In this document: in pieces, positions 23,094-45,677 of the stretch
Position numbering within the stretch: the stretch's first letter is position 1
How the letters are laid out: the number at the start of each line of letters is the position of its first letter
Assembly: GCA_002869165.1 (NCBI GenBank)
Contig: PKTK01000008.1
Location: 9,616-73,615, forward strand
Reading direction: 5' to 3'
DNA from: Candidatus Parcubacteria bacterium
GTDB lineage: Bacteria; Patescibacteriota; Patescibacteriia; Patescibacteriales; UBA12075
DNA: 64,000 bases
Made by a program: the position numbers and the translations under genes
The notes under the pieces: model-generated
Seen by the model: only the letters and a program-made list of their open reading frames with translations
What the model was told of the DNA's origin: nothing
Databases searched by the model: none

Positions 23094-23723
23094 ATGCAAA
23101 ACGAAACTGAAAAAATAATCCAAAATGTTGCCAGCCAAAGCAGCGACAGCGACAAAAACGCTGAAATAAAAGATCAAAAAATTCAGTTAGTTGTATTTGA
23201 ATTAGATAAGGAGGAATATGCAGTGGAAATCACTGATCTTCAGGAAATAAAAGAAGTACCTGAAGTTACTCCTATCCCAAATGCTCCTAACTTTATTAGT
23301 GGCATTTTTAACTTAAGAGGTAAGATTATTATTGTTGTTAATCTTGAAAAGAGATTCAATCTAGTTCGTGACCATGAACACACTGGATCAGAAAATATTA
23401 TTATAACTGAGGTAAGTCAAAACAGTTTCGGGATTCTAGTTGATCGAGTTAAAGAAATAATCAATATTCCTAAATCCACCATTCAATCAACCCCCTCTCT
23501 TGTTTCCACAAAAATTCATGCAAGTTATTTAAAAGGAGTTGTAGTAATGGCAAATGAAAAAAATCAAACAACAAATGCTGAAAACAAAACAAACAATGAA
23601 GAGAATATGGACTCTAGACTAATTATTCTTCTAGATTTACCTAAAATGCTTCAAGAAAAAGAACTTTTATCATTTTCTAGTTCAGTAAAAGACGTTGCTC
23701 AAAATACAGAAAACGATAATTAA
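23094..23723 (+). CDS. cheW: Chemotaxis coupling protein CheW
   Basis: CheW-like core: QLVVFELDKEEYAVEITDLQEIKEVPEVTPIPNAPNFISGIFNLRGKIIIVVNLEKRF. Has a low-complexity Asn-rich insertion near the C-terminus. Confidence 0.85.
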   Translation: MQNETEKIIQNVASQSSDSDKNAEIKDQKIQLVVFELDKEEYAVEITDLQEIKEVPEVTPIPNAPNFISGIFNLRGKIIIVVNLEKRFNLVRDHEHTGSENIIITEVSQNSFGILVDRVKEIINIPKSTIQSTPSLVSTKIHASYLKGVVVMANEKNQTTNAENKTNNEENMDSRLIILLDLPKMLQEKELLSFSSSVKDVAQNTENDN

Positions 23724-23751
23724 AATATAATTTATAAATTTAATAAAAACT

Positions 23752-24102
23752 ATGGCAAAAAAAATTTTAATCGCAGATTACAGTGCATTTATGAGAAAAA
23801 TGCTAATCGAAATTCTAAACGAAGGAGGTTACACCGAGATCATTGAAGCCGAAAACGGCAAAATAGCTCTTGAAAAAATTGAATCTGAAAATCCAGATTT
23901 GGTTCTTTTGGATATTATCATGCCAGAGGTTGATGGCGTTGAGGTAACCAAGCAAGCAGGTAAAAAAGTTAAAATCATTATTATCTCAGCTATTGGACAA
24001 GAAGGTGTTATTAAAGAGGCTCAAGATAATGGAGCTCTTGGATTTATTGTAAAACCATTTAAAAAAGAGCAGGTACTTGAAGAAGTAGGCAAACATGTCT
24101 AA
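23752..24102 (+). CDS. cheY: CheY-like single-domain response regulator (second acidic-pocket Asp replaced by Tyr)
   Basis: KILIADYSAFMRKML, phospho-acceptor context LVLLDIIMPEVDG, SAIG, and KPF near the C-terminus. Confidence 0.85.
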   Translation: MAKKILIADYSAFMRKMLIEILNEGGYTEIIEAENGKIALEKIESENPDLVLLDIIMPEVDGVEVTKQAGKKVKIIIISAIGQEGVIKEAQDNGALGFIVKPFKKEQVLEEVGKHV

Positions 24103-24105
24103 TCT

Positions 24106-25170
24106 ATGGCAAATGAAAAAATAAAACTTTTAATCGTAGATGATAGCGCTTTCATGCGCAATCTTGTTAGAGAACTATTAGCTGATGAAAAATACATTGA
24201 CATTGTTGATGAAGCCAAAAACGGTGAAGAGGCTATAAAAAAAGCAAAAGAATTAAAGCCAGCTGTAATCATAATGGATTATAAAATGCCAATAAAGAAT
24301 GGACTGGAAGCTACTGAAGAAATAATGAAAACCAAAGACTACTCCCCTGGCATTGTAATTTTTTCCGCGTATACCGAAGACGGCATAAAAGAAGGTTTTC
24401 ATAGTTTAAGGGTTGGAGCTATTGATTTCATTGCCAAACCAGATGGCTCAAAAGAATCTGAACTTAGAACAATCAAAGCAAAACTAATCCTAAAAATCAA
24501 AGTCGCAGCTAATGCTTTTATTCATGCTAAAACAAAAGATCTAACAAGCGACCCTTTACTTCCAAACGAGACAAAAATAAAAAACAATATTCAAGTCGTG
24601 GTTATTGGAGCTTCCACTGGAGGACCCCCAGTTGTTGAAAGAATAATCAAAGGAATAAACAGTAATTTTAAAGGAGTTTTGCTTGTAGTCCAACATATGC
24701 CGGAAAAATTCACCAGTATTTTTGCTGAATTAACTAATAAGGAATCAGAAATAGAAGTTAAACAAGCTGAAGAAAGCGAGGAATTAAAGCCTGGTACCTG
24801 CTACATAGCACCAAGTGGTCAGCACATGAAAATTGAAAAACAAGAAGATGATACAGGGGAAATAAAAAAAATAATTCATCTTACTAGAGAACCAAAAGTT
24901 TCTGGCTACAGACCGTCAATTGATGTATTGATGAACTCTGTAAGTAAAATTTACAAAGAGGAATCATTGGGAATAATCCTAACTGGTATGGGAAGCGATG
25001 GTTTAAAAGGTTCAATTAATATGCATGACAACGGAGCTTATATCATTGCTCAATCTCTTCAAACAGCAGTTATTGAATCTATGCCATCATCTATAATCAA
25101 TGCCGGAGTTGCTGATGAGGTGCTTTCTCCTCGTGAAATAAGCAACAGGATAAATTCCTTAAACAATTAA
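24106..25170 (+). CDS. cheB: Chemotaxis methylesterase CheB (receiver + esterase)
   Basis: Receiver motifs LLIVDDSAFMRNL and IIMDYKMP. Esterase triad contexts GASTGGP, VVQHMP, TGMGSDG. Confidence 0.9.
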   Translation: MANEKIKLLIVDDSAFMRNLVRELLADEKYIDIVDEAKNGEEAIKKAKELKPAVIIMDYKMPIKNGLEATEEIMKTKDYSPGIVIFSAYTEDGIKEGFHSLRVGAIDFIAKPDGSKESELRTIKAKLILKIKVAANAFIHAKTKDLTSDPLLPNETKIKNNIQVVVIGASTGGPPVVERIIKGINSNFKGVLLVVQHMPEKFTSIFAELTNKESEIEVKQAEESEELKPGTCYIAPSGQHMKIEKQEDDTGEIKKIIHLTREPKVSGYRPSIDVLMNSVSKIYKEESLGIILTGMGSDGLKGSINMHDNGAYIIAQSLQTAVIESMPSSIINAGVADEVLSPREISNRINSLNN

Positions 25171-25593
25171 ATGGATCTATCAAAATTCAAAGCAATATTT
25201 ATCTCAGAAGTAGAAGACCAGTTACAGAAACTTAACACTGGTGTTCTTTTACTAGAAAAATTAAATAATAAAGGCGAAATTGACACAAAGACTGTTAAAG
25301 ATACATATAATGAAATGATGAGAGCTAGTCATACCATCAAAGGTTCAAGCGCATCAATGGGTTTTGTAAAAATGGCTTTTTTAACTCACATCCTTGAGGA
25401 TGTTTTTGATGCTGCCAGAAATAATAGATTGAAGCTAAACGAAAAAATGGTTAATCTGGTCTTTAAGTCAATTGACAACATTGAAAATTCACTAAACAAC
25501 ATCAAAGAAAATGATGAAGAACTAGATTTTGATAATTTTTCTAAAAAATTAAAAAAGGAAACTGGTGTACAAACAGAAGGAATTGGAAAATAA
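25171..25593 (+). CDS. cheA: CheA P1 (Hpt) domain as a separate ORF
   Basis: Hpt motif MRASHTIKGSSASMGF. The ORF ends at TAA 25591-25593, in the same frame as the kinase-core ORF that starts 36 nt later. Confidence 0.8.
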   Translation: MDLSKFKAIFISEVEDQLQKLNTGVLLLEKLNNKGEIDTKTVKDTYNEMMRASHTIKGSSASMGFVKMAFLTHILEDVFDAARNNRLKLNEKMVNLVFKSIDNIENSLNNIKENDEELDFDNFSKKLKKETGVQTEGIGK

Positions 25594-25629
25594 AAAAGGA
25601 ATGAAGATGGCGGTCCTGTTGAATTAACT

Positions 25630-26958
25630 ATGCAAGAGCAACCAACTACTTCTGACATAAACCAAGAATCTGAGCTAGATAAAGAGCAGCAAACAGAATC
25701 TAATCTTGAAAAAATCGAAGAATCGGCTATCACAAAAATTGATTATATTAAAGTACCTGTAAAAAGACTGGACTCTCTACTTGATCTAGTTGAAGAACTT
25801 CTAATAAACAGAATGCATATTGAGGAGATCAGTCAAAGAAATCCAGAACTAAAAAATGTTTTTTCACACATGGATATGTTAATCTCAGGAATTCAATTCG
25901 AAGTTACTCAGTCAAGACTAGTTCCGGTAGAACAAGCCTTTGCTAGATTCCCAAGAATGATACGTGACTTATCTCAAAAAGAAAATAAAAAAATTAACTT
26001 TGAAGTCAGCGGTGGTGAAATTGAACTGGATAGATCGGTTGTCGATAAACTTGGCGAACCGCTAATCCATCTTCTAAGAAATGCTGTTGATCATGGCATA
26101 ACTGAAGAAGGTAAAATAAATCTATCAGCTATAAGAAAAAGTGAGAGAGTCCAATTTGTTGTTGAAAACATCGGTGAAAAAATAAATATTGAAAAAATCA
26201 AAAAAGTAGCCTTAAGCAAGGGCTTAGTAACCACGCAAACCATTTCAGAGATGAAAGAAAGCGCTATAATTGACTTCATCTTTCACCCAAACTTTTCAAC
26301 CAAAGATCATGTAACAGAAATATCTGGACGTGGAGTAGGATTAAATGTAGTAAAAAAGTTCGCCGATTCTTTCAATGGCAGAATTCTTGCTGAAAATACT
26401 GATAAAGGAGCTAGGTTTATTTTAGAACTTCCGCAGACTTTAGCAATAATAGAAACCTTATTGGTTGAGGTAAATAAATCAATATTTGCTATCCCTTTTA
26501 CTGATATTGAAAGATCAGTTAAGGTGTATAACACCGATATCAAAAGAATGGCTGACAGGGATATGGGAGTTATTGACGGCACAAATATTCCGCTAATTGA
26601 CCTTAGCGAATCATTTAAATACGTTGATGCCATCAAAAAAGTTGTCCATGTTAAAAATTCAGAAGGGAAAAAAATTAGTAATAGCGAATTAACAAACCCC
26701 GAAGAGCTAAAAACAACAGAAAACCAAGAAAAAGCAATCAAAAAAGACCATAAGTTAGTAGTTTTGGTTAAAAAAGAAGAGGGTATGGCTGGCATTGTGG
26801 TTGATTCCCTAATCACCGAACAAGAAGTTATAGTTAAACCATTTACGTCAATGCTACAAAATATAAAAGAATTTTCTGGTTCCACTATCTTAGGAGACGG
26901 TCGAGTGGTTTTAATTCTTGATGTTCTAAATATCATTAAAACATTAAATAAATTATAA
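25630..26958 (+). CDS. cheA: CheA kinase core (P3 dimerisation, P4 HATPase, P5 CheW-like), no P2
   Basis: N box HLLRNAVDHGI, F box FIFHPNFSTKD, G2 box ISGRGVGLNVVKK, C-terminal CheW-like domain. The G1 box is degenerate (VENIGEKIN instead of DxGxG). Confidence 0.85.
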   Translation: MQEQPTTSDINQESELDKEQQTESNLEKIEESAITKIDYIKVPVKRLDSLLDLVEELLINRMHIEEISQRNPELKNVFSHMDMLISGIQFEVTQSRLVPVEQAFARFPRMIRDLSQKENKKINFEVSGGEIELDRSVVDKLGEPLIHLLRNAVDHGITEEGKINLSAIRKSERVQFVVENIGEKINIEKIKKVALSKGLVTTQTISEMKESAIIDFIFHPNFSTKDHVTEISGRGVGLNVVKKFADSFNGRILAENTDKGARFILELPQTLAIIETLLVEVNKSIFAIPFTDIERSVKVYNTDIKRMADRDMGVIDGTNIPLIDLSESFKYVDAIKKVVHVKNSEGKKISNSELTNPEELKTTENQEKAIKKDHKLVVLVKKEEGMAGIVVDSLITEQEVIVKPFTSMLQNIKEFSGSTILGDGRVVLILDVLNIIKTLNKL

Positions 26959-26971
26959 TTAATAAAAAAAT

Positions 26972-27604
26972 ATGGAAAATAATGAAGTTATGTTCAACGA
27001 ATATGAATTAGACCAAATCAAAGAGGTCATTAATATTGGAGCCAGTCATTCATCAACTGCGCTATCTCAACTTGTAAATAAAAAAGTGATTATCTCTGTC
27101 CCCGAAATAACCATTGATAAAGTTGAAAATATCTCTAATATCATTGGTGATAACGAAAAAGTAGTTACTGCCATTCTACTTAACGTCTTAGGTGATGCCC
27201 CAGGAAATATTGTTTTCATGTTTACTCATGATGATGCTACCAGAAACTTTATTAAACTAATTTCCAACAAAGAAGAATCAAAAGCACAATACTTAGATGA
27301 ATTTGATTTATCTATCCTAAAAGAAACTGGAAATATTCTTGCTGGTGCTTCACTAAATGCTTTGTCAGTATTTCTAGGCGCATCGATAATTCAATCAGTA
27401 TCAGAATCTATCACTGACATGCTTGGTTCAATTGTAAATACAATCATGGGAGAAATTGGTCAAAGATCATCAACTGCTATAATTTGTAGAGTCACTTTTG
27501 AAATTGAAGGTGAAGATGTGAAGAATCCTGAATTATATTATTTTATCGACCCTAAGGCAACTGGAAAAATACTTGAAATGATCAAAAAGAAGCTTGGCGC
27601 TTAA
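26972..27604 (+). CDS. cheC: CheC-type CheY-P phosphatase
   Basis: The first site matches the CheC consensus D-x3-E-x2-N-x22-P exactly (DQIKEVIN...22 aa...P). The second site, SILKETGN, has Ser instead of the final Pro. Confidence 0.8.
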   Translation: MENNEVMFNEYELDQIKEVINIGASHSSTALSQLVNKKVIISVPEITIDKVENISNIIGDNEKVVTAILLNVLGDAPGNIVFMFTHDDATRNFIKLISNKEESKAQYLDEFDLSILKETGNILAGASLNALSVFLGASIIQSVSESITDMLGSIVNTIMGEIGQRSSTAIICRVTFEIEGEDVKNPELYYFIDPKATGKILEMIKKKLGA

Positions 27605-27630
27605 ATTTAATTACTACTTTAAAAAAATAA

Positions 27631-28128
27631 ATGACAAAAGACATAACATTAAAAGTCGGGGAGATGGTTGCTGTAAAAGGAAAATACCTTATCAAGTCAA
27701 TTGGAATTGGTTCTTGCGTTGTAGTTGTTATTTTTGACAAAGAAGAAAATATCGCAGCTATGTGCCACTCAATGCTCCCAAGCCCTTTAGAAGGAGACAA
27801 AAGTAAAGGACAGGGTCGTTTTGTTGATAATGTTCAGATATATGATGCAAAATATGTTGAATCAACCATTCCAAAAATGCTAGACCTGGTATTAAAACTA
27901 GGAGGAAGAAAAGACAAATTAAAAGCAAAAATTGTGGGAGGGGCTACCATGTTCAAGTCTTTTTCACCAGACAACTCATCAGTAGGAACAAACAACGTCA
28001 CTTTAACAAAAAAAATGCTCAATGATTTGAAGCTAACCATTAAATCTGAAAATACTGGTGGCAACCATGGCCGATCAGTTAGCTTTAATACTACAAATGC
28101 AGTAATGAGCGTCAATTCAAGAATCTAA
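27631..28128 (+). CDS. cheD: Chemoreceptor glutamine deamidase CheD
   Basis: GSCVVVVIFDKEENIAAMCHSMLPS (Cys/His catalytic context), AKIVGGATMF, ENTGGNHGRSVSF. Confidence 0.8.
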   Translation: MTKDITLKVGEMVAVKGKYLIKSIGIGSCVVVVIFDKEENIAAMCHSMLPSPLEGDKSKGQGRFVDNVQIYDAKYVESTIPKMLDLVLKLGGRKDKLKAKIVGGATMFKSFSPDNSSVGTNNVTLTKKMLNDLKLTIKSENTGGNHGRSVSFNTTNAVMSVNSRI

Positions 28129-28134
28129 ATTAAT

Positions 28135-28506
28135 ATGAAAGTATTAGTCATTGACGAAGACAAATTCGTTATAAATATTTATGAATCAGAATTCCACCAA
28201 CAAAATATAGAAGTAGTGGCTGCTTTTGATGGCGATGATGGCTGGGAAAAAGTAAAAGCAGAAAAACCAGATTTAATCATAATGGAACTTATACTATTCA
28301 AAATAAATGGTTTTGATCTAATAAAAAAAATAAAAAACGATAAAAAACTGAAAAATATCCCCATTGTAGTCTGTTCATCACTTAATCAACAGGATGATAT
28401 AGACGAATCCATGAAACTTGGAGCTTTAAAATATTTTTCAAAACAAACTTACTCTCTAAAACAAGTCACCAAAGAAGTTTTAGACATACTAATATCCCTA
28501 ATGTAA
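28135..28506 (+). CDS. Stand-alone receiver-domain protein with Glu at the phospho-acceptor position
   Basis: VLVIDEDKF, then DLIIMELILFKINGF where canonical receivers have D (GAA codon at 28285-28287), then IPIVVCSSL and LGALKYFSK. Ends 1 nt before pilB. Confidence 0.8.
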   Translation: MKVLVIDEDKFVINIYESEFHQQNIEVVAAFDGDDGWEKVKAEKPDLIIMELILFKINGFDLIKKIKNDKKLKNIPIVVCSSLNQQDDIDESMKLGALKYFSKQTYSLKQVTKEVLDILISLM

Positions 28507-28507
28507 G

Positions 28508-30202
28508 ATGAAACTATCTGACAGCCAATTAAAAATGCTTCTCTTGGGCTCCAGTTTAATTACCTATGACAAATTGAATATTGCTGAACACGAAGCAAAG
28601 GAAAAAAATATTTCCTTGCTAGAAACTCTTCCCATCTTAGGATTTATTTCTTCTGACAGACTTGGAAGAATAGTCGCTTCTGAACTCAAATATAACTACA
28701 TCAATCTCTCAAAAGAGGAAATAAACAAGGAGGCCCTATCATTAATTCCTGAAAAAGTTGCCAAACACAAAGGCATACTTGCTTTTGGTTATACAGATAG
28801 AGGAATCAAACTTGGTATGACTGATCCGGATGACATTGAGGCGATACAATTAGTTGAAAAAAAGACCCAAAAAAAAGTAATCCCCTTCTACATTACCAGG
28901 CAAGACCTTGAACAAACTCTTTCAAAACATAAAGGCAGTATTGAAAAAGAATTCAAACAACTTTTGAAAAAAATTCACGATGTTGAAAATAACATAGAAG
29001 AAAAAGACAGAATTGTAATTAAACTAGTAGATTCTTTACTCTATCTTAGTTACCAACAAAAAGTATCTGATATTCACCTTGAGCCACACGAAGATGAAGT
29101 TTTTGTTCGTTTTCGCATTGATGGTGTATTAAAAGATATTCTAAAAATGGAAAAAAGTACTTATGAACTAATGCTTGCCAGAATTAAAATTCTATCCAGA
29201 ATAAGAACCGATGATCACCTGAAGGCTCAAGACGGCAAATTAAAATTTGAAACTGATATTGAAGATATTGATATTCGTGTATCTGTACTACCTATCACCA
29301 ATGGAGAAAAAGTTGTTATGCGTATTCTGAGTTCACAAAGAACCAAATTTGGTTTAGCTGATCTTGGTTTGTCGGAAGAAAATTTAAAAATACTTTTAAA
29401 ATTAATAACCAATCCTCATGGCATGATATTGGTTACTGGGCCAACTGGGTCTGGTAAAACTACTTCAATTTATGGTGTTATGAAATTATTGAACAAACGT
29501 GAAGTAAATGTAGCAAGTATTGAAGATCCTGTAGAGTACAATATAGATGGTGTTAACCAAATACAAGTGAATGAAAAAGCTGGCCTTACTTTTGCTTCTG
29601 GTCTTAGATCGATTCTTCGTCAAGATCCAGACATTATAATGATTGGTGAAATTCGTGATGAAGAAACTGCTGACATTGCAGTAAATTCTGCTCTAACTGG
29701 TCACTTGGTGTTATCTACTCTACACACAAACAATGCTGCCACTACCCTACCCCGTTTACTTGATATGAACATTGAGCCATTTCTAGTCGCCTCAACTGTT
29801 AACGTTGCCATTGCTCAAAGATTAGTAAGGGCTAACTGTGTAAAATGCCGAACTTCATACAGACTGACTGAAGAAGAAATAAATATTATAAAAAGTGAAC
29901 CAAATATCATGAAGATTATTCAAGAAGAAGGCTTCAGCGAAGAATTAGAAAAAATAAGATTGTATAAAGGTGTTGGTTGTGATGCTTGCTCTCATACTGG
30001 TTTCAAAGGACGAATTGGAATTTTTGAGTTATTGGTTCTAGACGAAGAAATTAGAAGACTGATTGTCAATCGTGCATCTAGTGACGATCTGCAAGAAGCT
30101 GCGATCAAAGCAGGTATGACCTCTATGCTTCATGATGGAATTATTAAAGCCTTTAAAGGTACAACAACTCTAATGGAAGTATTTAGAGTTACAAGAGAAT
30201 AA
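28508..30202 (+). CDS. pilB: Type IV pilus assembly ATPase PilB/GspE family (copy 1)
   Basis: Walker A GPTGSGKTT, Walker B DPDIIMIGEIRD, His box TGHLVLSTLHTN, tetracysteine motif CVKCR...CDACSHTG. Confidence 0.9.
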   Translation: MKLSDSQLKMLLLGSSLITYDKLNIAEHEAKEKNISLLETLPILGFISSDRLGRIVASELKYNYINLSKEEINKEALSLIPEKVAKHKGILAFGYTDRGIKLGMTDPDDIEAIQLVEKKTQKKVIPFYITRQDLEQTLSKHKGSIEKEFKQLLKKIHDVENNIEEKDRIVIKLVDSLLYLSYQQKVSDIHLEPHEDEVFVRFRIDGVLKDILKMEKSTYELMLARIKILSRIRTDDHLKAQDGKLKFETDIEDIDIRVSVLPITNGEKVVMRILSSQRTKFGLADLGLSEENLKILLKLITNPHGMILVTGPTGSGKTTSIYGVMKLLNKREVNVASIEDPVEYNIDGVNQIQVNEKAGLTFASGLRSILRQDPDIIMIGEIRDEETADIAVNSALTGHLVLSTLHTNNAATTLPRLLDMNIEPFLVASTVNVAIAQRLVRANCVKCRTSYRLTEEEINIIKSEPNIMKIIQEEGFSEELEKIRLYKGVGCDACSHTGFKGRIGIFELLVLDEEIRRLIVNRASSDDLQEAAIKAGMTSMLHDGIIKAFKGTTTLMEVFRVTRE

Positions 30203-30204
30203 AT

Positions 30205-31287: not shown

Positions 31288-31756
31288 AATATTACAAAAA
31301 GAAAAAGGCTTTACATTAATTGAATTACTTATTGTTATTGCCATAATTATGATTGTGGCATCTTTTGCTTTTCCGGTTTTCTCGAATATTCAAAATTCAA
31401 CCCTATTAAAAGATGCCAGTGACCAATGTCTACAAGCAGCTAGACAAGCAAAAAATTCCTCATGTTCAGGTAAAGACAACAATGATCATGGTTTATATTT
31501 TCAACATAGCTCTGAGGCAAAAGACAAAATAGTAATTTTTACTGGTAAAACTTATTTATCCAGAGACACAAACAAAGATATTGAAATATCCTTTGAAAAA
31601 ACCATTAGTCTAAGCAACACCTTTACTGACAACCAAATTATTTTTTATCAAAATTCTTGCCTACCAGACCAAAACGGAATTATTAATATTTCTGCTAGCT
31701 CATTATCTAAAAATATCAATCTATCTATTAATTCCATAGGAATAATAAGCGAATAA
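31277..31756 (+). CDS. Prepilin-type N-terminal cleavage/methylation domain protein (minor pilin)
   Basis: KG|FTLIELLIVIAIIMIVAS class III signal peptide with Glu+5. Confidence 0.75.
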   Translation: MLVKILQKEKGFTLIELLIVIAIIMIVASFAFPVFSNIQNSTLLKDASDQCLQAARQAKNSSCSGKDNNDHGLYFQHSSEAKDKIVIFTGKTYLSRDTNKDIEISFEKTISLSNTFTDNQIIFYQNSCLPDQNGIINISASSLSKNINLSINSIGIISE

Positions 31757-31757
31757 A

Positions 31758-33217: not shown

Positions 33218-33221
33218 AACA

Positions 33222-33599: not shown

Positions 33600-33603
33600 A
33601 AAA

Positions 33604-36277: not shown

Positions 36278-36279
36278 TT

Positions 36280-36991: not shown

Positions 36992-37082
36992 TAAAATATA
37001 AATTAAAACAAATAAGTTCCCTCTTTAATAGAAATTAGATCTTTGATGATTCATAATAAAAAGAAATAACCAATTTTTAAAT

Positions 37083-37118
37083 AAAAAAAGACCATTGCAT
37101 ATCTAATGGTCTTTTTTT
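37083..37118. terminator. Bidirectional rho-independent terminator between the convergent pilus arms
   Basis: aaaaaaagaccatt-gcatatct-aatggtcttttttt. Perfect stem flanked by an A-run and a T-run, 14 nt after the MCP stop codon. Confidence 0.7.
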
Positions 37119-37131
37119 ATTATTAAAGCTT

Positions 37132-39261
37132 TTAGTCTTCTACTTTGTCGTCATCAACTTTTTTGTCATTATTATTTTCTTCTTGAGTTTTTCCTAGATC
37201 AAAATTTGAAGAGTCACTAATCTTAAAAGCTGCTATCAAGCTTTTTAATTCCTCAGCTTGAACATTTAACTGTTGTGCTGTACTTGATACCTGTTGCATT
37301 GATGATGATACTTGTTGGACTGCTGATGATACTTCACCAGATCCAGCTGCATTTTGTTCAGTTACAGCTGATACATTTACCAATGTTTTATTAATATTAT
37401 TAATTGACTTAGGAATTTCGGCAAAGGCTTGTTGGGTTTTGGTAGCCGCAGCCATACCTTGACCCACATTTTTTATACTGTTTTCAAAATCAACAACAAA
37501 TGTTTCGATTGTTCTTTGTATGCCTTTAATTAAGGTATCGATATCAGAAGTTGCTTTTTGAGATTCTTCAGCTAATTTCCTAACTTCCTCTGCTACCACC
37601 GCAAATCCCCTTCCAGCATCTCCAGCTCGAGCTGCTTCAATAGCTGCATTCAAAGCAAGTAGGTTGGTTTGTGAAGAAATTGAATTAATAGTGTCAATAA
37701 TTGTACCAATTTTCTTTGGTTCTTCTGCTAATATCTTTAACTTTTGAGAAGTGTCTCTGGTTGAGTCTCTAAGTTTTTCCATTTTCTGCATCAAATCATG
37801 GGCTGAATCTGCTCCTAGTTGAGAACTTTTTTCAGTTTCTGATGCAGCTTTTCTTGAATCTGCCACTGACCTTGATACATCCTGAGCTCCAGCTGCAATC
37901 TGCTGAATAGTCGATGATATCTGTTGCATAGCTGCATTAACCTCTTCAGCTGAAGTAGATAATTGATCTGCTGAGACAGCAGTTGAAACAACGGAACTTT
38001 TTATATTAGAAATTAATTTCTTAATTTTATTAATCATTACCGAAAATGAATGGGATAATTTGTTTATCTCACCTGCGCCTTTTTTTTCATCAACTAATAT
38101 TTCAAGATTACCTTCGGATGCTTCTTCAGTTAATTGACTCAAACCCTTTACTGGATTAGCAATATAAGAAGCAAACAAATAAGAAATCACTAGACAAATT
38201 AAAATTGATACAATAAGCAAAGTCCAAATCTGCCTTTGGGCTGCAAATAAAGTTGTTTCAAAATCTTCGCTGTAAGAACTAGCAGCAATTGACCAATCCC
38301 ATTCAGGATAATAAAGCACTGAAGCAATTTTATTTCTAGCTTTTACCTCTCCTTCGTTTTTCCATGGATAATTATAAATAAATAGATCTTCCCCATTCAA
38401 AGCCTTGGCTCCATTAATCATTTCCTGAATAAACAATCTTCCGTCAGCATCTTTTGCTCCCCAAATATTTTCTCCATCCCTGGATCTATTCTTTGACAGT
38501 ACATAATTACCTTCACCGTCTATAATCCAAACATAACCACTTTTACCAATAACCGTTTCTGAAACAGAGTCTAGCAATTCTTTTTGAAAATCAACTTCAG
38601 GAATACCGTTATAAAACACACCAATAACGTTTCCAGAATTATCAAATATTGGTTGATACACTGTCATGTACCAGCCATTTACTACATAAGCCCTGCCTTT
38701 GAATGTCTCACCACTCATTATTGTTTTATAAACAGGGGAATCACTAGGAATATATGTACCTGTTGCTCTTTCATTTTCCAAAGTCATTACATTTGTTGTT
38801 ACCCTCAGTAGTCCATTAGGAATTACCTGAAATAAAGTAACAGTTCCACCAATAATATCACGAATTTCATCAACAATCCTATGATCAGTTATTTTCCTAC
38901 CTCCAATCAACATCTCAGGAATTGTAACTTTTGAAGAGTCTTTTGTTATTTGATTAACTGCGTCGAATGTCAAAGAACTACTAGTACTCAAAACCGCTGA
39001 ACCATAAGAGATGAACAAGTTATAACCATTTTCTGAATCCCCTATTACTTCTTTTTCTGCCATCCGATAAATTGATTGGATACTATTTCTAACTAATTCA
39101 GTCTCAGTAGTTAGCTGTTCTTCAACTTGCATATAGTTTTCTTCTGTCATTATGTTTATTCCGTAGATACCCACAATAGACAAGGGCACAGCGACCAACA
39201 AACTCGTGATAATCACTAATTGCCACTTAATGCTAAAATTCTTTAGAAAATTGTTTTTCAT
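37132..39261 (-). CDS. Methyl-accepting chemotaxis protein with periplasmic Cache-like domain and HAMP
   Basis: Two TM helices flank a ~300-aa sensor domain. HAMP ([20 protein letters not shown]...). Conserved signalling hairpin [35 protein letters not shown]. Confidence 0.9.
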
Positions 39262-39278: not shown

Positions 39279-39797
39279 TTATCTGGTTGATGAAATACTG
39301 GGTGGTGTGGTTTGTGAGCCAGCTTCCTCAGAACAGGATCCAACAGTAATAGCGCCACTTGTATGTTTAACTAAATAATAATAAGAGTAGTTTGATCCAG
39401 CTCCAGTTTGTGACGGATCAAATGGAATTTCTTGTAAATATCCATCATCAAGTAATCCTTCTAGGTCAACACAATCAGCTTGCAAAACAACAGTTGGATT
39501 AGAGCAAGTTTTATTACAATCCCCTTCAGTTCCAATCATATAATAATAATCATTTGTTAAATCATTGATAGCATCCATATAAAGTCCTCCATTGTCTACT
39601 TGATCAAGTTTTACCGCTGACAAAACAGCATTCACGTCCGTCCATCTTTGAGCATTTCTAGAATCTTGAAAACGTGCTAATGGATCAAGGGCAACAAAGG
39701 CCAGTGACGCTAAAACAGCAATTACACCGATTACAATCAATAATTCAACTAAAGTAAAACCCCTCTTTTCAGTTTTTAAAAACAAGTTTTTAATCAT
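39279..39797 (-). CDS. Type IV pilin (major pilin candidate, copy 2)
   Basis: KRG|FTLVELLIVIGVIAVLAS, RFQDSRNAQRWTDV. Same four-Cys pattern and ...GSCSEEA C-terminal motif as 35756-36277. Confidence 0.8.
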   Translation of the reverse strand: MIKNLFLKTEKRGFTLVELLIVIGVIAVLASLAFVALDPLARFQDSRNAQRWTDVNAVLSAVKLDQVDNGGLYMDAINDLTNDYYYMIGTEGDCNKTCSNPTVVLQADCVDLEGLLDDGYLQEIPFDPSQTGAGSNYSYYYLVKHTSGAITVGSCSEEAGSQTTPPSISSTR

Positions 39798-39885: not shown

Positions 39886-41394
39886 TTAGTCATTTAGTAA
39901 AATGTTTTTAGTTGTTTTAGTAGCATAATTAGCGCTAACCCACCCCTCAAATTCTTCATTTAAAAGTATCTTAAACCATAAATCCTTCTCTTCTAAAAGT
40001 TCGTATTCAGACCCTGGTTCAATCTGACCTATTATCTCGCTGGATGTAGAATTACTTGCTCGTACATTCAACTTCATTCCTATCTCGTCTACTACAATAA
40101 ACATCTTGTCAGTATAAATCGGCGGCGCTTCTTCTACTACATTAATTTCTTCTACGGCATTCTCAATCTCACTCTCAGACACTTGACTATTTCTTATTAA
40201 TGATGTTTTAAACCACACCACTAAACTAGCTGTCAATATAAACGAAGCGAGCAAAACTACTTTGAATAGATTTTTATAATCAAAAAAACGACTGCTTACT
40301 TCTTTAATTTTTAAATATTCATTACCTACCACTCCTGAAATAAACATTGGATCTGTTTTGTCCCATTTGTGATAAAATTCTCTCATTGCTAAGCCAACAC
40401 ACCGGTAATATTTTTGCTCCAAATCATTAAAATCTTCAGATGACTTAAAACTAACCACATTAGAATTCCTTAAACTGCTCTTTAAAATATTAATAATTTT
40501 TTCCTGAAAATATTCACCATATAGAACTAACAATGATTCATCTGTAAATTGATCTTTGGAATTATTAACTATTCTAGAGTTGTAATATTCTATATGCTCC
40601 TTTATCTCCAGGCCCACTTCTTCAAAATAATTATTAATCAAGTTTCCTCCTTTCTCATCATTACTTTGATCGTCATGAAAAATATAAGTCATCGCTTCTG
40701 TTTCCCCAATATTCTTCATTTTCATTACTTCTTCCAGTAATTTATTAAACCCTGACATAATTGAATAATTATATCTAATACTGTTTTTTGTAAAAAAGGA
40801 TATTTGAATTATTTCTCTAGAAAAATCTACTAATAAAATATTCTTCCCCTGATATTCACTATGTAGTGTTCGATACAAAGATAAGCCCTCTGTATCAAAT
40901 AATTCAATTTCTTTGTTGATTTGTTCAAAAATATTTTGCCAATTCAGTATCGTCTTTTTTCTGGTAGCTACTACCACGACATTAAAACTGTTGCTGGAAT
41001 TTTTAGAGTCTTTTTCTATTGCTTTATATACAAAAATACCATCTTCTTCTGATATTGGAATATTATCTCTATATTCTTTTAGTGCTCTATTTTTTAATCC
41101 TCCTAAACCGCTGTCCAACTCAAATATATGAGTATAGACCCTTTCATCAGGAATCGAAAAATGCAGTCTAGTTCCCTTTATAGACTGAGGTTCTGCTTGA
41201 GCAAATGCTTTGTTTATTGATTTAACAAGCAGGTTAGAATTTTTTATCACCCCTCTTTCAATTATCCCTTTTTCTAAAACCAACTCGCTTTTTGCTGAAA
41301 CAGCTATTTTTTTTTCTTGTTTTTCTAATTCAACTACCCTGATACTATGATCATTAACCTCTATTCCGATACTTTTTTTTGATTTATTAAACAT
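39886..41394 (-). CDS. PilM-like protein with TM segment and C-terminal SH3b domain (copy 2)
   Basis: N-terminus KSIGIEVNDHSIRVVEL. TM helix VVLLASFILTASLVVWF. C-terminus KLNVRASNSTSSEIIGQIEPGSEYELLEEKDLWFKI. Confidence 0.7.
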   Translation of the reverse strand: MFNKSKKSIGIEVNDHSIRVVELEKQEKKIAVSAKSELVLEKGIIERGVIKNSNLLVKSINKAFAQAEPQSIKGTRLHFSIPDERVYTHIFELDSGLGGLKNRALKEYRDNIPISEEDGIFVYKAIEKDSKNSSNSFNVVVVATRKKTILNWQNIFEQINKEIELFDTEGLSLYRTLHSEYQGKNILLVDFSREIIQISFFTKNSIRYNYSIMSGFNKLLEEVMKMKNIGETEAMTYIFHDDQSNDEKGGNLINNYFEEVGLEIKEHIEYYNSRIVNNSKDQFTDESLLVLYGEYFQEKIINILKSSLRNSNVVSFKSSEDFNDLEQKYYRCVGLAMREFYHKWDKTDPMFISGVVGNEYLKIKEVSSRFFDYKNLFKVVLLASFILTASLVVWFKTSLIRNSQVSESEIENAVEEINVVEEAPPIYTDKMFIVVDEIGMKLNVRASNSTSSEIIGQIEPGSEYELLEEKDLWFKILLNEEFEGWVSANYATKTTKNILLND

Positions 41395-41395
41395 A

Positions 41396-43084
41396 TTATC
41401 CCATTGTTACTCTTATTACTTCCTCTAAAGTGGTTATACCATTGGCTGCCTTTTCTATTCCATCTTCAAGCATGGTTTTCATTCCTTCGTCTATAGCCTG
41501 ATCTTTTATTTCTAAATTCGTGGCTTCTTTAGTAATTAATTTTTTTATTTTTGGACTAACTTTCAAGATTTCATATATACCAGTCCTTCCACTATAGCCA
41601 GTACCTGAACATGCTTTACAGCCATCACCCTTGTACCATGTAATATCCTTTATATTTTTATTAAAACGTTTTTCAATCCTATTTTGCAAACCCTCTGTAA
41701 TTGCAATAAAACCTAAATCCACTTCTGTTAATCGATATGTGTAACGACATTTAGTACAAATCGTCCTGAGAAGTCTTTGAGCTATCACCACATTCACAGT
41801 AGAAGCAATTAAAAACGGCTCTATCTTCATCTCTAATAAACGTGGTAGTGCAGTTGCTGAATCAGTTGTATGCAAAGTAGATAAAACTAAATGGCCTGTC
41901 ATGCCAGCATTGACAGCGATTTCAGCAGTCTCCGAATCTCGAATTTCCCCCACCATAATAACATCAGGATCTTGTCTAACAATAGCCCTTAAACCGTTTG
42001 CAAAACTAAGTCCGGATTTATTATCTACTTGAATCTGACTAACTCCTTCAATATTATATTCAACTGGATCTTCAATGCTGGCTACATGCACTTTTTCGGT
42101 GTTTATTTTCTTGAGTAGTTCATACATGGTTGTAGTTTTTCCTGAACCAGTAGGACCAGTAACTAAAATCATGCCATGATGATTTAATATAAGCTTCTTG
42201 ATTTGTTTTAAATCCTCTTCACTAAAACCAATACTACTAAGGCTTAAATGCTTGTTTCTCTTTGTTAACAGTCTAAAAACTATATTTTCGCCACCCTTAA
42301 CGGGTAGTATTGAAACTCTAACATCAACATTTTCTCCACTAGCATTAAAAACAAACTTTCCATCTTGTGCACTGCGATGCTCGTCAATTCTAATTTTTGA
42401 TATAATTTTAATTCTGGTAATCAATTTTTCATACACTTCTTTTTGTAACTCTGCCACCCTACTCATCACACCATCAACTCTAAATCTGACACCAATAAAA
42501 TTTTCATAAGGCTCAATATGTACATCAGAGGCTTTTAGATTGTAAGAATGAATAAGAATAGTATCGAGTATCTTTACCATTAATTCATCTTTTTCTTGGC
42601 CAGGACTAGCTTTTAAATATTCCTCCTCTCTTTTTTTTAAATCCTCATATAAACCTGCCTGGTACTGCCAAAAAGTTCTTTCTAGATCTGTCTCTGTTGC
42701 AAAAAAAATTTTTATTTCTGCATCAAAATATTTTTCTAAAAAATCTATCAATTCTAAGTCACCTGGATCAGCCATAGCAATATTATATACATTGTTCTGA
42801 TGCGAAAAAACGATTATTTTCTTTGCCCTAGCCATACCCTCAGGCAAAAGACCCAATAAATCTTCACCGATCTTTTCGTGCTGCAAATCAATAAAAGGTT
42901 TTTTTATTTTTTGAGCAATTAATTGTCCAAATTCATTATCTGCCAAATAGCCCTTTTCAATAATTGCATCATATATAGTTATATTTTTTTCCGTAGCAAA
43001 AAACTTGGCCTGGTCATATTCTTGCTTTGTCAAATACCCTGGCTCAAGAACCAACTCTATTATTTCTTTTTCGGTTAAATTCAT
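41396..43084 (-). CDS. pilB: Type IV pilus assembly ATPase PilB/GspE family (copy 2)
   Basis: GPTGSGKTT, DPDVIMVGEIRD, TGHLVLSTLHTT, CTKCR...CKACSGTG. Confidence 0.9.
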   Translation of the reverse strand: MNLTEKEIIELVLEPGYLTKQEYDQAKFFATEKNITIYDAIIEKGYLADNEFGQLIAQKIKKPFIDLQHEKIGEDLLGLLPEGMARAKKIIVFSHQNNVYNIAMADPGDLELIDFLEKYFDAEIKIFFATETDLERTFWQYQAGLYEDLKKREEEYLKASPGQEKDELMVKILDTILIHSYNLKASDVHIEPYENFIGVRFRVDGVMSRVAELQKEVYEKLITRIKIISKIRIDEHRSAQDGKFVFNASGENVDVRVSILPVKGGENIVFRLLTKRNKHLSLSSIGFSEEDLKQIKKLILNHHGMILVTGPTGSGKTTTMYELLKKINTEKVHVASIEDPVEYNIEGVSQIQVDNKSGLSFANGLRAIVRQDPDVIMVGEIRDSETAEIAVNAGMTGHLVLSTLHTTDSATALPRLLEMKIEPFLIASTVNVVIAQRLLRTICTKCRYTYRLTEVDLGFIAITEGLQNRIEKRFNKNIKDITWYKGDGCKACSGTGYSGRTGIYEILKVSPKIKKLITKEATNLEIKDQAIDEGMKTMLEDGIEKAANGITTLEEVIRVTMG

Positions 43085-43086
43085 AT

Positions 43087-43464
43087 TTAGTCTAAATGTT
43101 CATTAATTTTCTTAACCACTTCAGCAACAGAAAAATTTGCCTTTATCAAATAATCAACTGCTCCCAATTGCTTCCCTTTTTCTATATCTGTTTCCTGTCC
43201 TAAATTCGATAAAACTATAATTGGAATATCTTTGTATTCTTCATTTAATTTAATTTCTTCTATTGTCTCAAAACCATTTTTATCTGTCATAATTACATCC
43301 ATCAAAATTATGTCTGGCTTGTTTTCTTTAAGAATTTCCATGACATGATTTCCATCAGATGCATGAAAAACCTCAAAACCAGCTCTTTGTAATCCACCTA
43401 AATAAGCTTTAGATATAAATTTATCATCTTCAGCTAAAATTACTTTTATTTTTTTATCAGTCAT
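43087..43464 (-). CDS. Stand-alone receiver-domain response regulator (canonical Asp)
   Basis: VILAEDDKF, DIILMDVIMTDKNGF, IPIIVLSNLGQETDIE, YLIKA. Ends 2 nt before pilB copy 2. Confidence 0.85.
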   Translation of the reverse strand: MTDKKIKVILAEDDKFISKAYLGGLQRAGFEVFHASDGNHVMEILKENKPDIILMDVIMTDKNGFETIEEIKLNEEYKDIPIIVLSNLGQETDIEKGKQLGAVDYLIKANFSVAEVVKKINEHLD

Positions 43465-43490
43465 AATACTTTTTTATATAATTATTTAAA

Positions 43491-45677
43491 TTATGAAATT
43501 GCTAATCCTCTTTCCCCCTCTCTCTTTAACATTCCAGTAAGTGGCATTTTTACATAAAAAACTGTTCCCTTGCCCTCATTCGAATCAAACCAAATCTTTC
43601 CTCCAGAACTATCCACTATCATTTTTGAAGCATACAAACCAAGGCCCGTTCCTTCAGTAACAGCCTGAATAGCATTATCAGCTCGATAAAATTTTTCAAA
43701 TATCCTTTCCTGCATCCCCTTCGGTATTCCTATACCATTATCACTTACACTAATTATATAGTATACATTGTCTTTTTCAACTTTAACCCCCACTTTACCG
43801 TTTTTTTGTTTTGAGTATCTAATTGCATTAGAAATTAAATTTTGAATAACTTGTCTAAATAAATTTTGATCAATCATTACCTTGGGCAATTTCACTTCTT
43901 TATATTCAATTTTCACATTACTAATTCTGGCTGAAGGTTTTGCCTCTGTAATCAGGTTCTTAATATATTCATTAATATCAGTTTCTCTAGGAGTAACCCT
44001 AAGGCGCCCCGACTCAATTCTAGTTACATTTAACAAATCATTAACTAATCTAATCATCCTAGTTGTTGATTTATGAATATTCTCCAAATGCTCCTTTTGT
44101 TCTTCGTTTATTTTTCCAATGTCCTCTTCAATCAAAGCCTCAGAAAAAAGTTTTACTGCAGTCAATGGTGTTCTTAGTTGATGACTCGCAACAGAAACAA
44201 ACTCAGTCTTCATTCGGTCTATTTCTTTTATATAAGTTATATCATGAATAATAATTGCCCCGCCCACAATTCCTCCATCATTATCTTTTACAGGTGAAAT
44301 TGTAATTTCATAAAATTTGTTAACAAATAACACTTCGTTTATATGTGACACCACCCCTCTTTCCAAAGCGCCATCAATCATCTTCTCAAGTTCAATCCCT
44401 GGAAATAATCTTATAAAATCATACAAATTTGCTGAAGAATAAAGTAAACCCGTATAAAAAGTAGCTTTTGAGTTAGTTAAAACAACATTTTTCTCAACTG
44501 TAAACATGATAACTCCGTCACTCAAACTTTTTACCAAAGACTCAGTTTTGGAATGCTGAGACTTATCCAATGCATGCAAATGTGCAATAGTTACAGACAA
44601 AGTTGCACCAATTGCCCGAGATAAATTGTCTTCAATATCAGAATACTCAACATGTTCACAATAAGACAAATGTATAATTCCAAAAAAATTTTCTCCTGTA
44701 GACAAAGGAATCAATAATGACTTTTTGGGTATTGCATCAATAGAATTATCAAGTTTCTCACCTCCCAAGCTTGGACATATCTTTTCTAAAATTTTATTAT
44801 TTACATTATTAAAAGTTTTTTTATTTTTTTTAATATACTCAATAATTTCGTCTTTAATAGAATCTATATAATTTTCACTTACATTTTCATTCAAATAAGA
44901 TTTAAAATATAAATCCCCTTCTTCAAACGGATTAGATACAAGCAATGTAATAACACTTGACTTAGAAGCTTGTTTTAAATGCTCATAAACAAAATTAACA
45001 GCCTCTCTAACATCAATTACATTTGTTAATTTATCTCCTAATGATTTTAAAATTTCTAATTGAAAATGTCTATTCTCTAAATCAATTTTTGAAGCTTCAA
45101 GTTCTTCTTGTGAATCTTGCACGTCTTCCAAAATATTCAATATCGCCGCTCTTTGCTTCTCAAGTTCTTTTTTGTCAATATGCATTTTATCCACTAATTT
45201 TTTGAGTTCAAGTGTTTTATTTTCTACAAGATTCTCCATTTCTTTTGACTGAATTTCAAGCTTTTGCTTATAGCTAAACAAAAAATCAAGTGTTTTGTTG
45301 AAAGCATTTGCCAATGAGCCAATCTCGTCATCACTATCAATTTCAATTTTTCTATCAAATTCTCCATTAGCAACTCGCAAAGAAGCTTCCTTTAATTTTT
45401 TAATAGGATTAATCAACCCTTTTGCAACAAAATATGATACTAGCAAAGAAACCAAAGAAAAAACAATTGTTGCCAGTGTGCCAGTCTTTATAAAACTATT
45501 TATTATATTGCTTGCCAAGTTCTCATCAATATTATATTCAATTAAAACATCTGTTAAAAAAACCTGAAAATAGTAGTTTATACTAATTCCCATGAATAAA
45601 ATAAATAAGAAAAAACTAATAAGTATCTTGTTTAAAATACTAGAACTTTCTTCTGCTTTATCTACTTCTTTCTTCAT
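43491..45677 (-). CDS. Sensor histidine kinase (TM-HAMP-coiled coil-GAF/PAS-like-HisKA-HATPase_c)
   Basis: HAMP NPIKKLKEASLRVANGEFDRKIEIDSDDEIGSLANAFN, H box FVSVASHQLRTPLT, G2 box TGLGLYASKMIV. Its ATG overlaps a TGA of the upstream reading frame (ATGA). Confidence 0.85.
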   Translation of the reverse strand: MKKEVDKAEESSSILNKILISFFLFILFMGISINYYFQVFLTDVLIEYNIDENLASNIINSFIKTGTLATIVFSLVSLLVSYFVAKGLINPIKKLKEASLRVANGEFDRKIEIDSDDEIGSLANAFNKTLDFLFSYKQKLEIQSKEMENLVENKTLELKKLVDKMHIDKKELEKQRAAILNILEDVQDSQEELEASKIDLENRHFQLEILKSLGDKLTNVIDVREAVNFVYEHLKQASKSSVITLLVSNPFEEGDLYFKSYLNENVSENYIDSIKDEIIEYIKKNKKTFNNVNNKILEKICPSLGGEKLDNSIDAIPKKSLLIPLSTGENFFGIIHLSYCEHVEYSDIEDNLSRAIGATLSVTIAHLHALDKSQHSKTESLVKSLSDGVIMFTVEKNVVLTNSKATFYTGLLYSSANLYDFIRLFPGIELEKMIDGALERGVVSHINEVLFVNKFYEITISPVKDNDGGIVGGAIIIHDITYIKEIDRMKTEFVSVASHQLRTPLTAVKLFSEALIEEDIGKINEEQKEHLENIHKSTTRMIRLVNDLLNVTRIESGRLRVTPRETDINEYIKNLITEAKPSARISNVKIEYKEVKLPKVMIDQNLFRQVIQNLISNAIRYSKQKNGKVGVKVEKDNVYYIISVSDNGIGIPKGMQERIFEKFYRADNAIQAVTEGTGLGLYASKMIVDSSGGKIWFDSNEGKGTVFYVKMPLTGMLKREGERGLAIS

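Follow-up and report, generated by a model that had tools for sequence, protein, structure and literature searches.

Chemotaxis genes run directly into type IV pilus genes in a 64,000-nucleotide (nt) stretch of DNA from a Candidatus Parcubacteria bacterium (GenBank assembly GCA_002869165.1, contig PKTK01000008.1, positions 9,616 to 73,615), to which we refer as the window. The organism belongs to the Candidate Phyla Radiation (CPR, or Patescibacteria), and the G+C content of the window is ~30-37%. The window is also contained in the JGI metagenome contig Ga0102541_1309770 (88 kb, sample 3300007102), and NCBI lists its CheA fragment as a hypothetical protein from 'Candidatus Parcubacteria bacterium'. 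We propose, at a probability of roughly 0.6, that this locus encodes a functional F1-like chemosensory pathway in a CPR bacterium without flagella, and that the output of the pathway is the type IV pilus machine of the same operon. An earlier note on this DNA had suggested, for an organism with a small genome, that a pathway of the CheC/CheD type is transcriptionally coupled to pilus extension ATPases. At the genetic level this suggestion holds, based on a gene order that is conserved in relatives and on components that are F1-like.

Chemotaxis and pilus genes in one row

We derived gene content and order from the coordinates of open reading frames (ORFs) and from Pfam scans, which also covered all other ORFs of at least 100 amino acids (aa) in the 64 kb. 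The plus arm of the locus (23094-36648) consists of cheW-cheY-cheB-cheA-cheC-cheD, a receiver gene, pilB-pilC, four prepilin-like genes, pilM, a pilin gene, and another receiver gene. Every gene that the earlier note had named was recovered in its place. The single-domain receivers other than CheY are called REC2, REC3, and REC4 here. The features of the plus arm and of the gap that follows it are listed below; TM stands for transmembrane.

23028-23057, plus strand: best sigma-70-like promoter match (TTGCTA-18-TG-TATAAT), within the 279-nt gap upstream of cheW
23094-23723, plus strand: cheW, coupling protein (Pfam CheW, 3.8e-32)
23752-24102, plus strand: cheY, canonical single-domain receiver (Pfam Response_reg), phospho-acceptor Asp present ('LLDIIMP')
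24106-25170, plus strand: cheB, receiver plus methylesterase/deamidase (Pfam CheB_methylest, 3.6e-59; NCBIfam CheB above cut-off)
25171-26958, plus strand: cheA, P1-P3-P4-P5 (Pfam Hpt, H-kinase_dim, HATPase_c, CheW)
26972-27604, plus strand: cheC, CheY-P phosphatase (Pfam CheC; best NCBIfam model, Thermotogales CheC)
27631-28128, plus strand: cheD, receptor deamidase and CheC partner (Pfam CheD, 1.8e-23; best NCBIfam model, Thermotoga CheD)
28135-28506, plus strand: REC2, single-domain receiver of 123 aa between cheD and pilB1 (Pfam Response_reg)
28508-30202, plus strand: pilB1, extension-type ATPase (Pfam T2SSE, 4.5e-124, and MshEN)
30205-31287, plus strand: pilC, platform protein (Pfam T2SSF, two repeats)
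31277-31756, plus strand: prepilin-like gene 1 (Pfam N_methyl, 2.3e-9)
31758-32723, plus strand: prepilin-like gene 2, prepilin-like N-terminus MKKENGNSLIEVIIALAIF, no Pfam match
32720-33217, plus strand: prepilin-like gene 3 (Pfam N_methyl, 1.8e-5)
33222-33599, plus strand: prepilin-like gene 4, N-terminus MNKNGFSVLVLVIIIG without Glu5, one hydrophobic N-terminal segment, no Pfam match
33604-35787, plus strand: pilM1 fusion (Pfam PilM_2 and SH3_3; one TM helix, residues 417-435)
35756-36277, plus strand: pilin, likely the major pilin of this arm (Pfam N_methyl)
36280-36648, plus strand: REC3, Asp-bearing receiver that ends the operon (Pfam Response_reg, alignment)
37083-37120: perfect palindromic hairpin AAAAAAAGACCATT-N8-AATGGTCTTTTTTT, 17-nt arms that are 100% complementary, with A-run and T-run flanks

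Catalytic and adaptation motifs are kept in CheC and CheD and in the receptor described below. CheA has a single Hpt domain and no fused receiver, and Pfam detected no P2 domain. Reading the motifs from the sequence, the first D-x3-E-x2-N-x22-P site of CheC is intact and the second retains S-x3-E-x2-N, while the Cys and His residues of CheD are present.

The pilus genes encode parts of a type IVa-like machine, as judged by Pfam and NCBIfam: a PilB-type ATPase, a PilC platform, PilM, and prepilins with N-terminal methylation motifs. PilB1, and likewise the PilB2 of a second arm described below, scored ~505-508 bits against the NCBIfam PilB/GspE models, which is under the equivalog cut-offs. In both PilM proteins of the window, a PilM domain on the cytoplasmic side (actin-like in PilM1) is followed by a single TM helix and, at the C-terminus, by a bacterial SH3 domain. 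This fusion looks like an alignment protein of the PilM/PilN type that is anchored to the wall; it may stand in for separate PilN and PilO proteins and tether the machine to the cell wall.

The spacing of the genes is tight throughout. Junctions within the che part measure 0-28 nt, and from cheD onward the genes either overlap or lie at most 6 nt apart, with 6 nt between cheD and REC2 and 1 nt between REC2 and pilB1. No intergenic plus-strand terminator was found between cheW and REC3. Based on these gaps, the lack of an intergenic terminator, and the conservation described below, we infer that the che and pil genes are co-transcribed. Note that the promoter scan is powerless in such AT-rich DNA (77 promoter-like sites in the region vs. 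74 expected from shuffling) and that the match upstream of cheW is weak. Downstream, a 483-nt gap (36649-37131) with no ORF of at least 60 aa and no Rfam match separates the plus arm from the convergent minus arm. The perfect hairpin in this gap would fit a bidirectional terminator; another hairpin, at 36941-36974, is imperfect.

Sequence quality and the intact cheA gene

An independent assembly, ENA ERZ794999 NODE_10 (330 kb, our locus L158), carries the same locus and was used for comparison. Over 20 kb (19754-37276), the window differs from it at 12 positions, among them 23779, 25592, 28235, and 31831, and all 12 differences are C-to-A or G-to-T. They introduce two false stops and several amino acid changes into the window. 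This pattern is of a damage or error type, and the differences look like sequencing or assembly noise and not like biology. Other apparent nonsense codons or odd residues in the window are suspect as well.

One of these positions lies in cheA. As read in the window, the gene is cut into an Hpt/P1 part (25171-25593) and a P3-P4-P5 part (25630-26958) by an in-frame TAA at 25591-25593, within the P1-P3 linker (GIGK*KR). A total of 28 relatives give the consensus GxGKSxR at this site, with Ser where the window has the stop, and ERZ794999 reads TCA (Ser), resulting in an uninterrupted CheA of 595 aa. The split between P1 and P3-P5 that the earlier note had reported is thus an artifact of one C-to-A change (TCA to TAA). 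We also considered a deliberately split CheA with P1 acting in trans, as in Rhodobacter, and rejected it, given the intact gene in the independent assembly.

The second false stop, TAA at 31830-31832, interrupts prepilin-like gene 2. It is likewise missing from ERZ794999, and the protein has 321 aa in other assemblies. In cheY, the Asp of the acidic pocket reads as Tyr in the window (T for G at 23779), which is an artifact relative to the independent assembly. Outside the locus, a 7TM-GAF-HisKA kinase gene (50966-49296, minus strand) and a HATPase_c gene (49274-48849, minus strand) are parted by a single in-frame TAA ('VKDF*KFNF'). This split (48849-50966) is probably another artifact, as GAA to TAA would be the same C-to-A error type.

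An F1-like chemosensory system with a proposed pilus output

Several lines of comparison place the components near the F1 class of chemosensory systems in the scheme of Wuichet and Zhulin. CheA scored 243 bits against Thermotoga maritima CheA vs. 160 bits against Escherichia coli CheA, and its best NCBIfam model is that of haloarchaeal CheA. The best PDB matches of CheY are an archaeal CheY (6er7) and then T. maritima CheY. The only methyl-accepting chemotaxis protein (MCP) of the window aligns over 269 residues of its signaling domain with the 44H receptor TM1143 (2ch7), with no net indel in either arm, and has five methylation sites of strict consensus (EE, QQ, EQ, QQ, QQ) vs. 0.1 expected by shuffling. 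Among the matches listed, the nearest CheA loci outside the CPR belong to Firmicutes, Thermotogae, Actinomycetota, and archaea and include CheC and CheD; several of the archaeal and actinobacterial ones have the order CheW-CheY-CheB-CheA-CheC-CheD seen here. The assignment to a CheC/CheD-type pathway in the earlier note is therefore supported by Pfam, NCBIfam, and PDB matches and by the TM1143 alignment.

Comparing the locus with the two candidate classes gives a mixed picture. Two features of F1 systems are present, namely a non-hybrid CheA (P1...P3-P4-P5) and CheC and CheD encoded with CheA, CheW, CheY, and CheB; two others were not found, namely a cheR gene nearby and a flagellum or archaellum as the output, pilus genes standing in the operon instead. 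With the type IV pilus (Tfp) class, the locus shares adjoining pilus genes and single-domain CheY-like receivers. It does not share the hybrid CheA or the absence of CheC and CheD. By composition, then, the system is F1-like, with a predicted output that is not that of F1.

Pfam found no flagellar, MotAB, CheR, PilT, or prepilin peptidase (PilD) family among the ORFs of at least 100 aa in the 64 kb, in agreement with the earlier note as regards flagellar, motAB, and cheR genes. There were no flagellar or archaellar genes in 11 related loci of 14-22 kb either, and the Pfam lists of these loci contain no CheR match. As the MCP keeps methylation-consensus sites, a distal cheR elsewhere in the genome is likely.

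Conservation of the gene order across CPR bacteria

A search with CheA returned more than 100 relatives at 40-73% identity, and those that were named are Patescibacteria (Pacebacteria, Uhrbacteria, Wolfebacteria, Gracilibacteria, Minisyncoccales). For synteny, we sampled contigs of 11 independent CPR relatives (L082, L083, L085, L087-L089, L009, L048, L155-L157). In 7 of the 11, whose CheA proteins are 43-58% identical, the che genes are followed on the same strand by one or more receivers, pilB, and pilC, as itemized here.

L082, L083, L087, L088, L089: fused che-pil, one strand, CheA 46-58% identical
L156 (Wolfebacteria): fused che-pil, one strand, CheA 44% identical, no CheD
L157 (Gracilibacteria, GCA_016763975.1): fused che-pil, one strand, CheA 43% identical, 3-4 receivers before pilB
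L155 (Uhrbacteria): convergent pilus cluster 3 kb from cheD, plus a PilT-like ATPase of 329 aa
L085, L009 (Paceibacterota), L048 (Lloydbacteria): che operon alone

Because the arrangement recurs at such low CheA identity, the adjacency of che and pil genes is not due to chance. The earlier note had proposed synteny in relatives as a test of the coupling, and the outcome speaks in its favor. Downstream of the junction, the order of minor pilins, PilM-SH3, and pilin is usually as in the window, and the PilM-TM-SH3 architecture was found in all of the fused relatives. A rough neighbor-joining tree, which lacks support values and can give only an indication, groups the CPR CheAs in one clade apart from other F1-like sequences, with the fused arrangement spread over most of that clade.

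Searches of genome contigs added outgroups. A single CheA query gave no matches, and a profile search with the CheA alignment gave mostly non-CPR F1 loci among the matches listed, which serve as outgroups and not as a CPR census. One locus from an Actinomycetes metagenome-assembled genome (L074, JALHJB010000014.1) has MCP-CheW-CheY-CheB-CheA-CheC-CheD followed by a PilB/ArlI-like ATPase that is 31% identical to PilB1, and it may be another bacterial Che system adjoining a type IV filament ATPase. In the archaeal loci L006 and L061, che genes lie next to archaellum genes, as expected.

We also observed variation among the CPR loci themselves. The minor pilins of the Gracilibacteria locus exceed 600 aa and contain fibronectin-III domains. 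In two distant CPR che operons, a conserved ORF of 193 aa lies between cheW and cheY (L085:7971-8552 and L157:7965-8546); it has no Pfam match and a weak, 25% similarity to CheC, and may encode a divergent phosphatase of the CheX/CheC kind.

A second, convergent pilus arm

Facing the plus arm is a minus arm that runs from 45677 to 37132 in the order sensor kinase, receiver, pilB2, pilM2, pilin, MCP, as follows.

43491-45677, minus strand: membrane sensor histidine kinase (Pfam HAMP, PAS, HisKA, HATPase_c; 2 TM)
43087-43464, minus strand: REC4, receiver with Asp, between the sensor kinase and pilB2 (Pfam, alignment)
41396-43084, minus strand: pilB2, extension-type ATPase (Pfam)
39886-41394, minus strand: pilM2-TM-SH3 fusion (Pfam PilM_2, SH3_3; TM helix, residues 374-392)
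39279-39797, minus strand: pilin of this arm (Pfam N_methyl)
37132-39261, minus strand: MCP with Cache3-Cache2 sensor, 2 TM helices, HAMP, and 44H-like signaling domain (Pfam)

The sole MCP of the 64 kb is therefore the last gene of this arm, as the earlier note had it. That note had also called the pilus locus duplicated. A second, paralogous pil arm does exist, yet it is partial, with no pilC and no minor pilins, and identities to the plus arm reach only 46% for PilB (by BLASTP), 25% for the PilM fusions, and 40% for the pilins. At these values a recent duplication of the locus was rejected, and the second arm is an old and partial paralogue of the first. In the relative L082, the same kinase-receiver-PilB-PilM module immediately precedes cheW and shares its strand; the two modules thus travel as a pair.

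A receiver with Glu at the phosphorylation site

Alignments split CheY from a paralogous group of REC2, REC3, and REC4, which have a common insertion around 'K(N/D)IP'. The phospho-acceptor Asp is kept in CheY, REC3, REC4, and the receiver domain of CheB. In REC2, the alignments place Glu at this position ('PDLIIMELILF'; the equivalent of CheY Asp57). REC2 still carries the signature of the receiver fold, together with the conserved Lys and Ser residues.

Most orthologues of REC2 share the Glu. A library of 1.8 billion proteins gave, in a search dominated by multi-receiver proteins, five REC2-like clusters (at 50% identity) among the matches listed, and four of these have Glu. Asp occurs at this site in the Wolfebacteria orthologue, which is 52% identical, and in P0130, P0133, P0134, and P0181. 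The conservation of Glu across diverged clusters means that it is under selection and not decaying, and the Glu form is therefore a variant, kept by selection, of a receiver that could once be phosphorylated. A profile search of metagenome contigs with the REC2 alignment was limited by patterns that are too degenerate, with only generic receivers, at no more than 34% identity, among the matches listed; the contig of the window itself was not among them.

The positions of the receivers also recur. A receiver at the operon end, as with REC3, is conserved in L082 and L087. A receiver directly upstream of pilB is found after ordinary sensor kinases as well, in the minus arm of the window and in L082, L090, and L091. 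The pairing of a receiver with PilB thus recurs independently of che, which suggests that it is general. The Gracilibacteria locus L157 has 3-4 tandem single-domain receivers between cheD and pilB (12821-14518), all with Asp.

The neighborhood of the locus

Other ORFs of at least 100 aa in the window encode, according to Pfam, parts of ABC transporters, glycosyltransferases, more two-component proteins, and a giant surface protein. No tRNA and no Rfam match were found in the 64 kb. The giant ORF (5100-22814, minus strand; 5904 aa) is divergent from cheW, has DUF2341, Laminin_G_3, and fibronectin-III repeats, and resembles a surface protein or adhesin of giant size. A local bump in G+C (0.44) at 10-12 kb of the window falls within its region. 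In the relative L089, a different giant ORF (>2700 aa, no Pfam match) lies upstream of the che cluster.

Signaling genes are unusually dense here for a CPR genome. Between the kinase of the minus pilus arm and the split 7TM kinase sits a 552-aa protein (47047-48705, minus strand) with PAS domains only (3-4) and no recognizable output domain. Farther away, an ORF with DUF559 (Vsr-like endonuclease fold; 59755-60102, minus strand) is isolated amid glycosyltransferase genes.

Proposed mechanism and alternatives

The mechanism that we propose starts with the Cache-type MCP, which would sense an external ligand and, via CheW, control CheA. CheA would phosphorylate CheY, CheB, and probably REC3, and CheC would take the phosphate off CheY. 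CheD and CheB, with a CheR encoded elsewhere, would deamidate, demethylate, or otherwise modify the receptor for adaptation. A phosphorylated single-domain receiver would act directly on PilB, PilC, or PilM and alter pilus extension, which would bias twitching or host contact.

In this mechanism, the receivers adjoining each pilB would be adaptor subunits that bind PilB, with REC4 switched by its sensor kinase. REC2 would have been switched by CheA ancestrally, because Asp is kept in Wolfebacteria, and would have been fixed in one state by the Asp-to-Glu change in this clade. The chemotactic signal would then have to enter via CheY or REC3 in this organism. We place this specific adaptor role of REC2 somewhat below even odds. 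A bolder idea, to which we assign a still lower chance, is that CPR bacteria have a third, independent wiring of che to a type IV filament, apart from Pil-Chp/Tax and from archaeal CheF, in which an F1 core signals via small stand-alone receivers that dock on the extension ATPase PilB. The docked receiver of this clade would be the Glu variant, independent of phosphorylation, and CheY-P would have to act on another site of the pilus machine.

It is important to note that several points weigh against our proposal. The coupling of che and pil is known here from gene context alone, and three CPR che operons (L085, L009, L048) have no pilus genes within 10 kb, meaning that the adjacency is not obligatory. 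The receiver that links cheD to pilB1 has no phospho-acceptor: with Glu for Asp, REC2 cannot be phosphorylated by CheA in this organism, so the most obvious signaling route is gone, and the simple path from CheA to the receiver to PilB does not hold here as written. No homologue of CheF or FliM was seen as a target for CheY-P, and cheR was seen neither in the window nor in ~230 kb of related loci, despite CheB, CheD, and methylation sites. Finally, pilT, on which retraction-driven motility would depend, was not seen in the window.

The alternative that survives best is a variant of our own model, in which Che controls the pilus machine for host attachment, predatory contact, or DNA uptake, with host cues triggering its deployment, and not for directed motility. 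We regard it as unlikely, though several features would fit. Neither arm has pilT within the window, a 5904-aa surface protein adjoins the operon, the Cache sensor of the MCP is typical of small-molecule sensing, and cultured Saccharibacteria bind their hosts by a non-retractile pilus (PMC11623550). However, CheB, CheC, CheD, and multiple methylation sites are hallmarks of temporal gradient sensing for which an on/off trigger has no need, and pilT may be encoded elsewhere, as L155 has a PilT-like ATPase beside its cluster.

A little less probable again is an output that has nothing to do with pili and concerns, for instance, gene expression, surface polysaccharide, or the cell cycle, with the adjacency arising from operon packing in a compact genome. 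The che operons that stand alone, the REC2 that is not phosphorylatable here, and the many single-domain receivers and kinases scattered over the window could all be read in this way. Random packing, however, would not keep the same junction of cheC/cheD, receiver(s), pilB, pilC, and minor-pilin order across CPR classes, nor does the operon encode anything else that could be the output, such as a receiver protein with a DNA-binding or enzymatic function.

We consider it very improbable that Che acts on a flagellum or some other motor whose genes lie elsewhere in the genome and that its place beside pil is incidental. F1 systems normally control flagella or archaella, and the 64 kb examined are a part of a ~1 Mb genome; yet neither the window nor the related loci contain a flagellar gene, and surveys and microscopy report Patescibacteria without flagella (PMC7137472, PMC8080830, PMC7143001). 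That the locus is decaying, as the dead receiver and the in-frame TAA codons of two genes, cheA and that of a minor pilin, might imply, can be dismissed, since both stops are missing from the independent assembly, 12 of 12 differences follow the error-type pattern, and the Glu of REC2 is conserved across diverged orthologues.

Relation to known systems

Chemosensory control of type IV pili is already known. The CheC/CheD-type variant in CPR bacteria, which is known from its gene context, is one for which we found no description. The earlier note had presented the system as a candidate for a novel one, and this stands as far as we found no account of it in the literature; what that note overlooked is the closest precedent, which is archaeal. 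There, the archaellum, which is a type IV filament, is under the control of an F1-type Che system that includes CheC and CheD and acts via CheY, CheF, and ArlCDE. The locus described here resembles it in having the same gene set (CheW, CheY, CheB, CheA, CheC, CheD), che genes beside a type IV filament ATPase, and a type IV filament machine as the putative output instead of a flagellum. Unlike in archaea, there is no CheF/ArlCDE adaptor, the motor is a PilB/PilC/PilM pilus motor and not a rotating archaellum, extra single-domain receivers lie directly upstream of the ATPase genes, and cheR was not found nearby. In how it would work, the locus is most similar to the archaeal Che-archaellum and to the bacterial Tfp class (Pil-Chp, Tax), in which CheY-like regulators act on PilB and PilC. 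Based on its gene content, with no CheF/ArlCDE and no hybrid CheA, it belongs to neither.

The Pil-Chp system of Pseudomonas aeruginosa is a chemosensory pathway whose genes adjoin pil genes and which acts on type IV pili via PilG and PilH (PMC12632253). Our locus is alike in its che genes beside pil genes and in its single-domain CheY-like regulators. The kinase of Pil-Chp, ChpA, is a large hybrid in which several Hpt domains are joined to a receiver; PilK (a CheR) and ChpB are present, CheC and CheD are not known from it, and the receptor PilJ is of a different length class. The locus here instead has a plain P1-P3-P4-P5 CheA plus CheC and CheD.

In the cyanobacterial Tax1/Pix system, PixG and PixH bind PilB1 and PilC directly (10.1101/2021.06.11.447907, PMC11181946). 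Such direct binding of a receiver to the motor is the mechanism that we propose for the receivers next to PilB. Tax1/Pix differs in its PATAN-domain regulators, its hybrid kinase PixL, its lack of CheC/CheD, and its light input. The F1 systems of Bacillus subtilis and T. maritima have the closest component sequences, together with a CheC phosphatase, a CheD deamidase, and a 44H-like receptor as in our locus. Their output is the flagellar switch (FliM, FliY), whereas no flagellar genes were found here and CheA is without a recognizable P2.

For REC2, the atypical (pseudo-)receiver FrzS of Myxococcus offers a comparison, and it turned up when the REC2 profile was matched against PDB. ChxR of Chlamydia has Glu at the phospho-site, as REC2 does. 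Unlike both, REC2 is a stand-alone protein of 123 aa that is encoded between cheD and pilB.

Within the CPR, Nanosynbacter lyticus TM7x (Saccharibacteria) has two pilus machines with paralogous sets of PilB, PilC, and PilM, which serve in twitching and host binding, respectively (PMC11623550). It is thus, like our organism, a CPR bacterium with two pilus machines, and differs in that the paper on its loci mentions neither che genes nor receivers (PMC11623550). More generally, cultured CPR bacteria of the Saccharibacteria use type IV pili to twitch and to bind their hosts (PMC9894109, PMC11623550). Reviews describe Patescibacteria as lacking chemotaxis and flagella and as 'nonmotile' (PMC7137472, PMC11974145), and a Peribacteria genome paper from 2016 names che genes together with twitching and pilus genes within one sentence (PMC4736985). 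We found no che-pilus operon described for CPR bacteria in full-text literature, a scope that mostly leaves out subscription journals, so that an earlier mention is possible.

Implications for CPR bacteria

The Patescibacteria make up a large share of bacterial diversity, and a che-pil operon contradicts the generalization that they have no chemotaxis and no motility. In these bacteria, experiments support no device for movement and host capture other than type IV pili (PMC9894109, PMC11623550), and a conserved che-pil operon leads to a testable hypothesis for how obligate episymbionts find or engage their hosts. The Asp and Glu forms of REC2 provide a natural pair for studies of pilus ATPase regulation. 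If our proposal is true, the chemotaxis field would gain a bacterial F1-type (CheC/CheD) system that drives a type IV filament, paralleling archaea, with a receiver-PilB adaptor. If the bolder idea of a third wiring is true as well, ultra-small episymbionts that have been regarded as non-motile and non-chemotactic would find their hosts by chemotactic deployment of pili.

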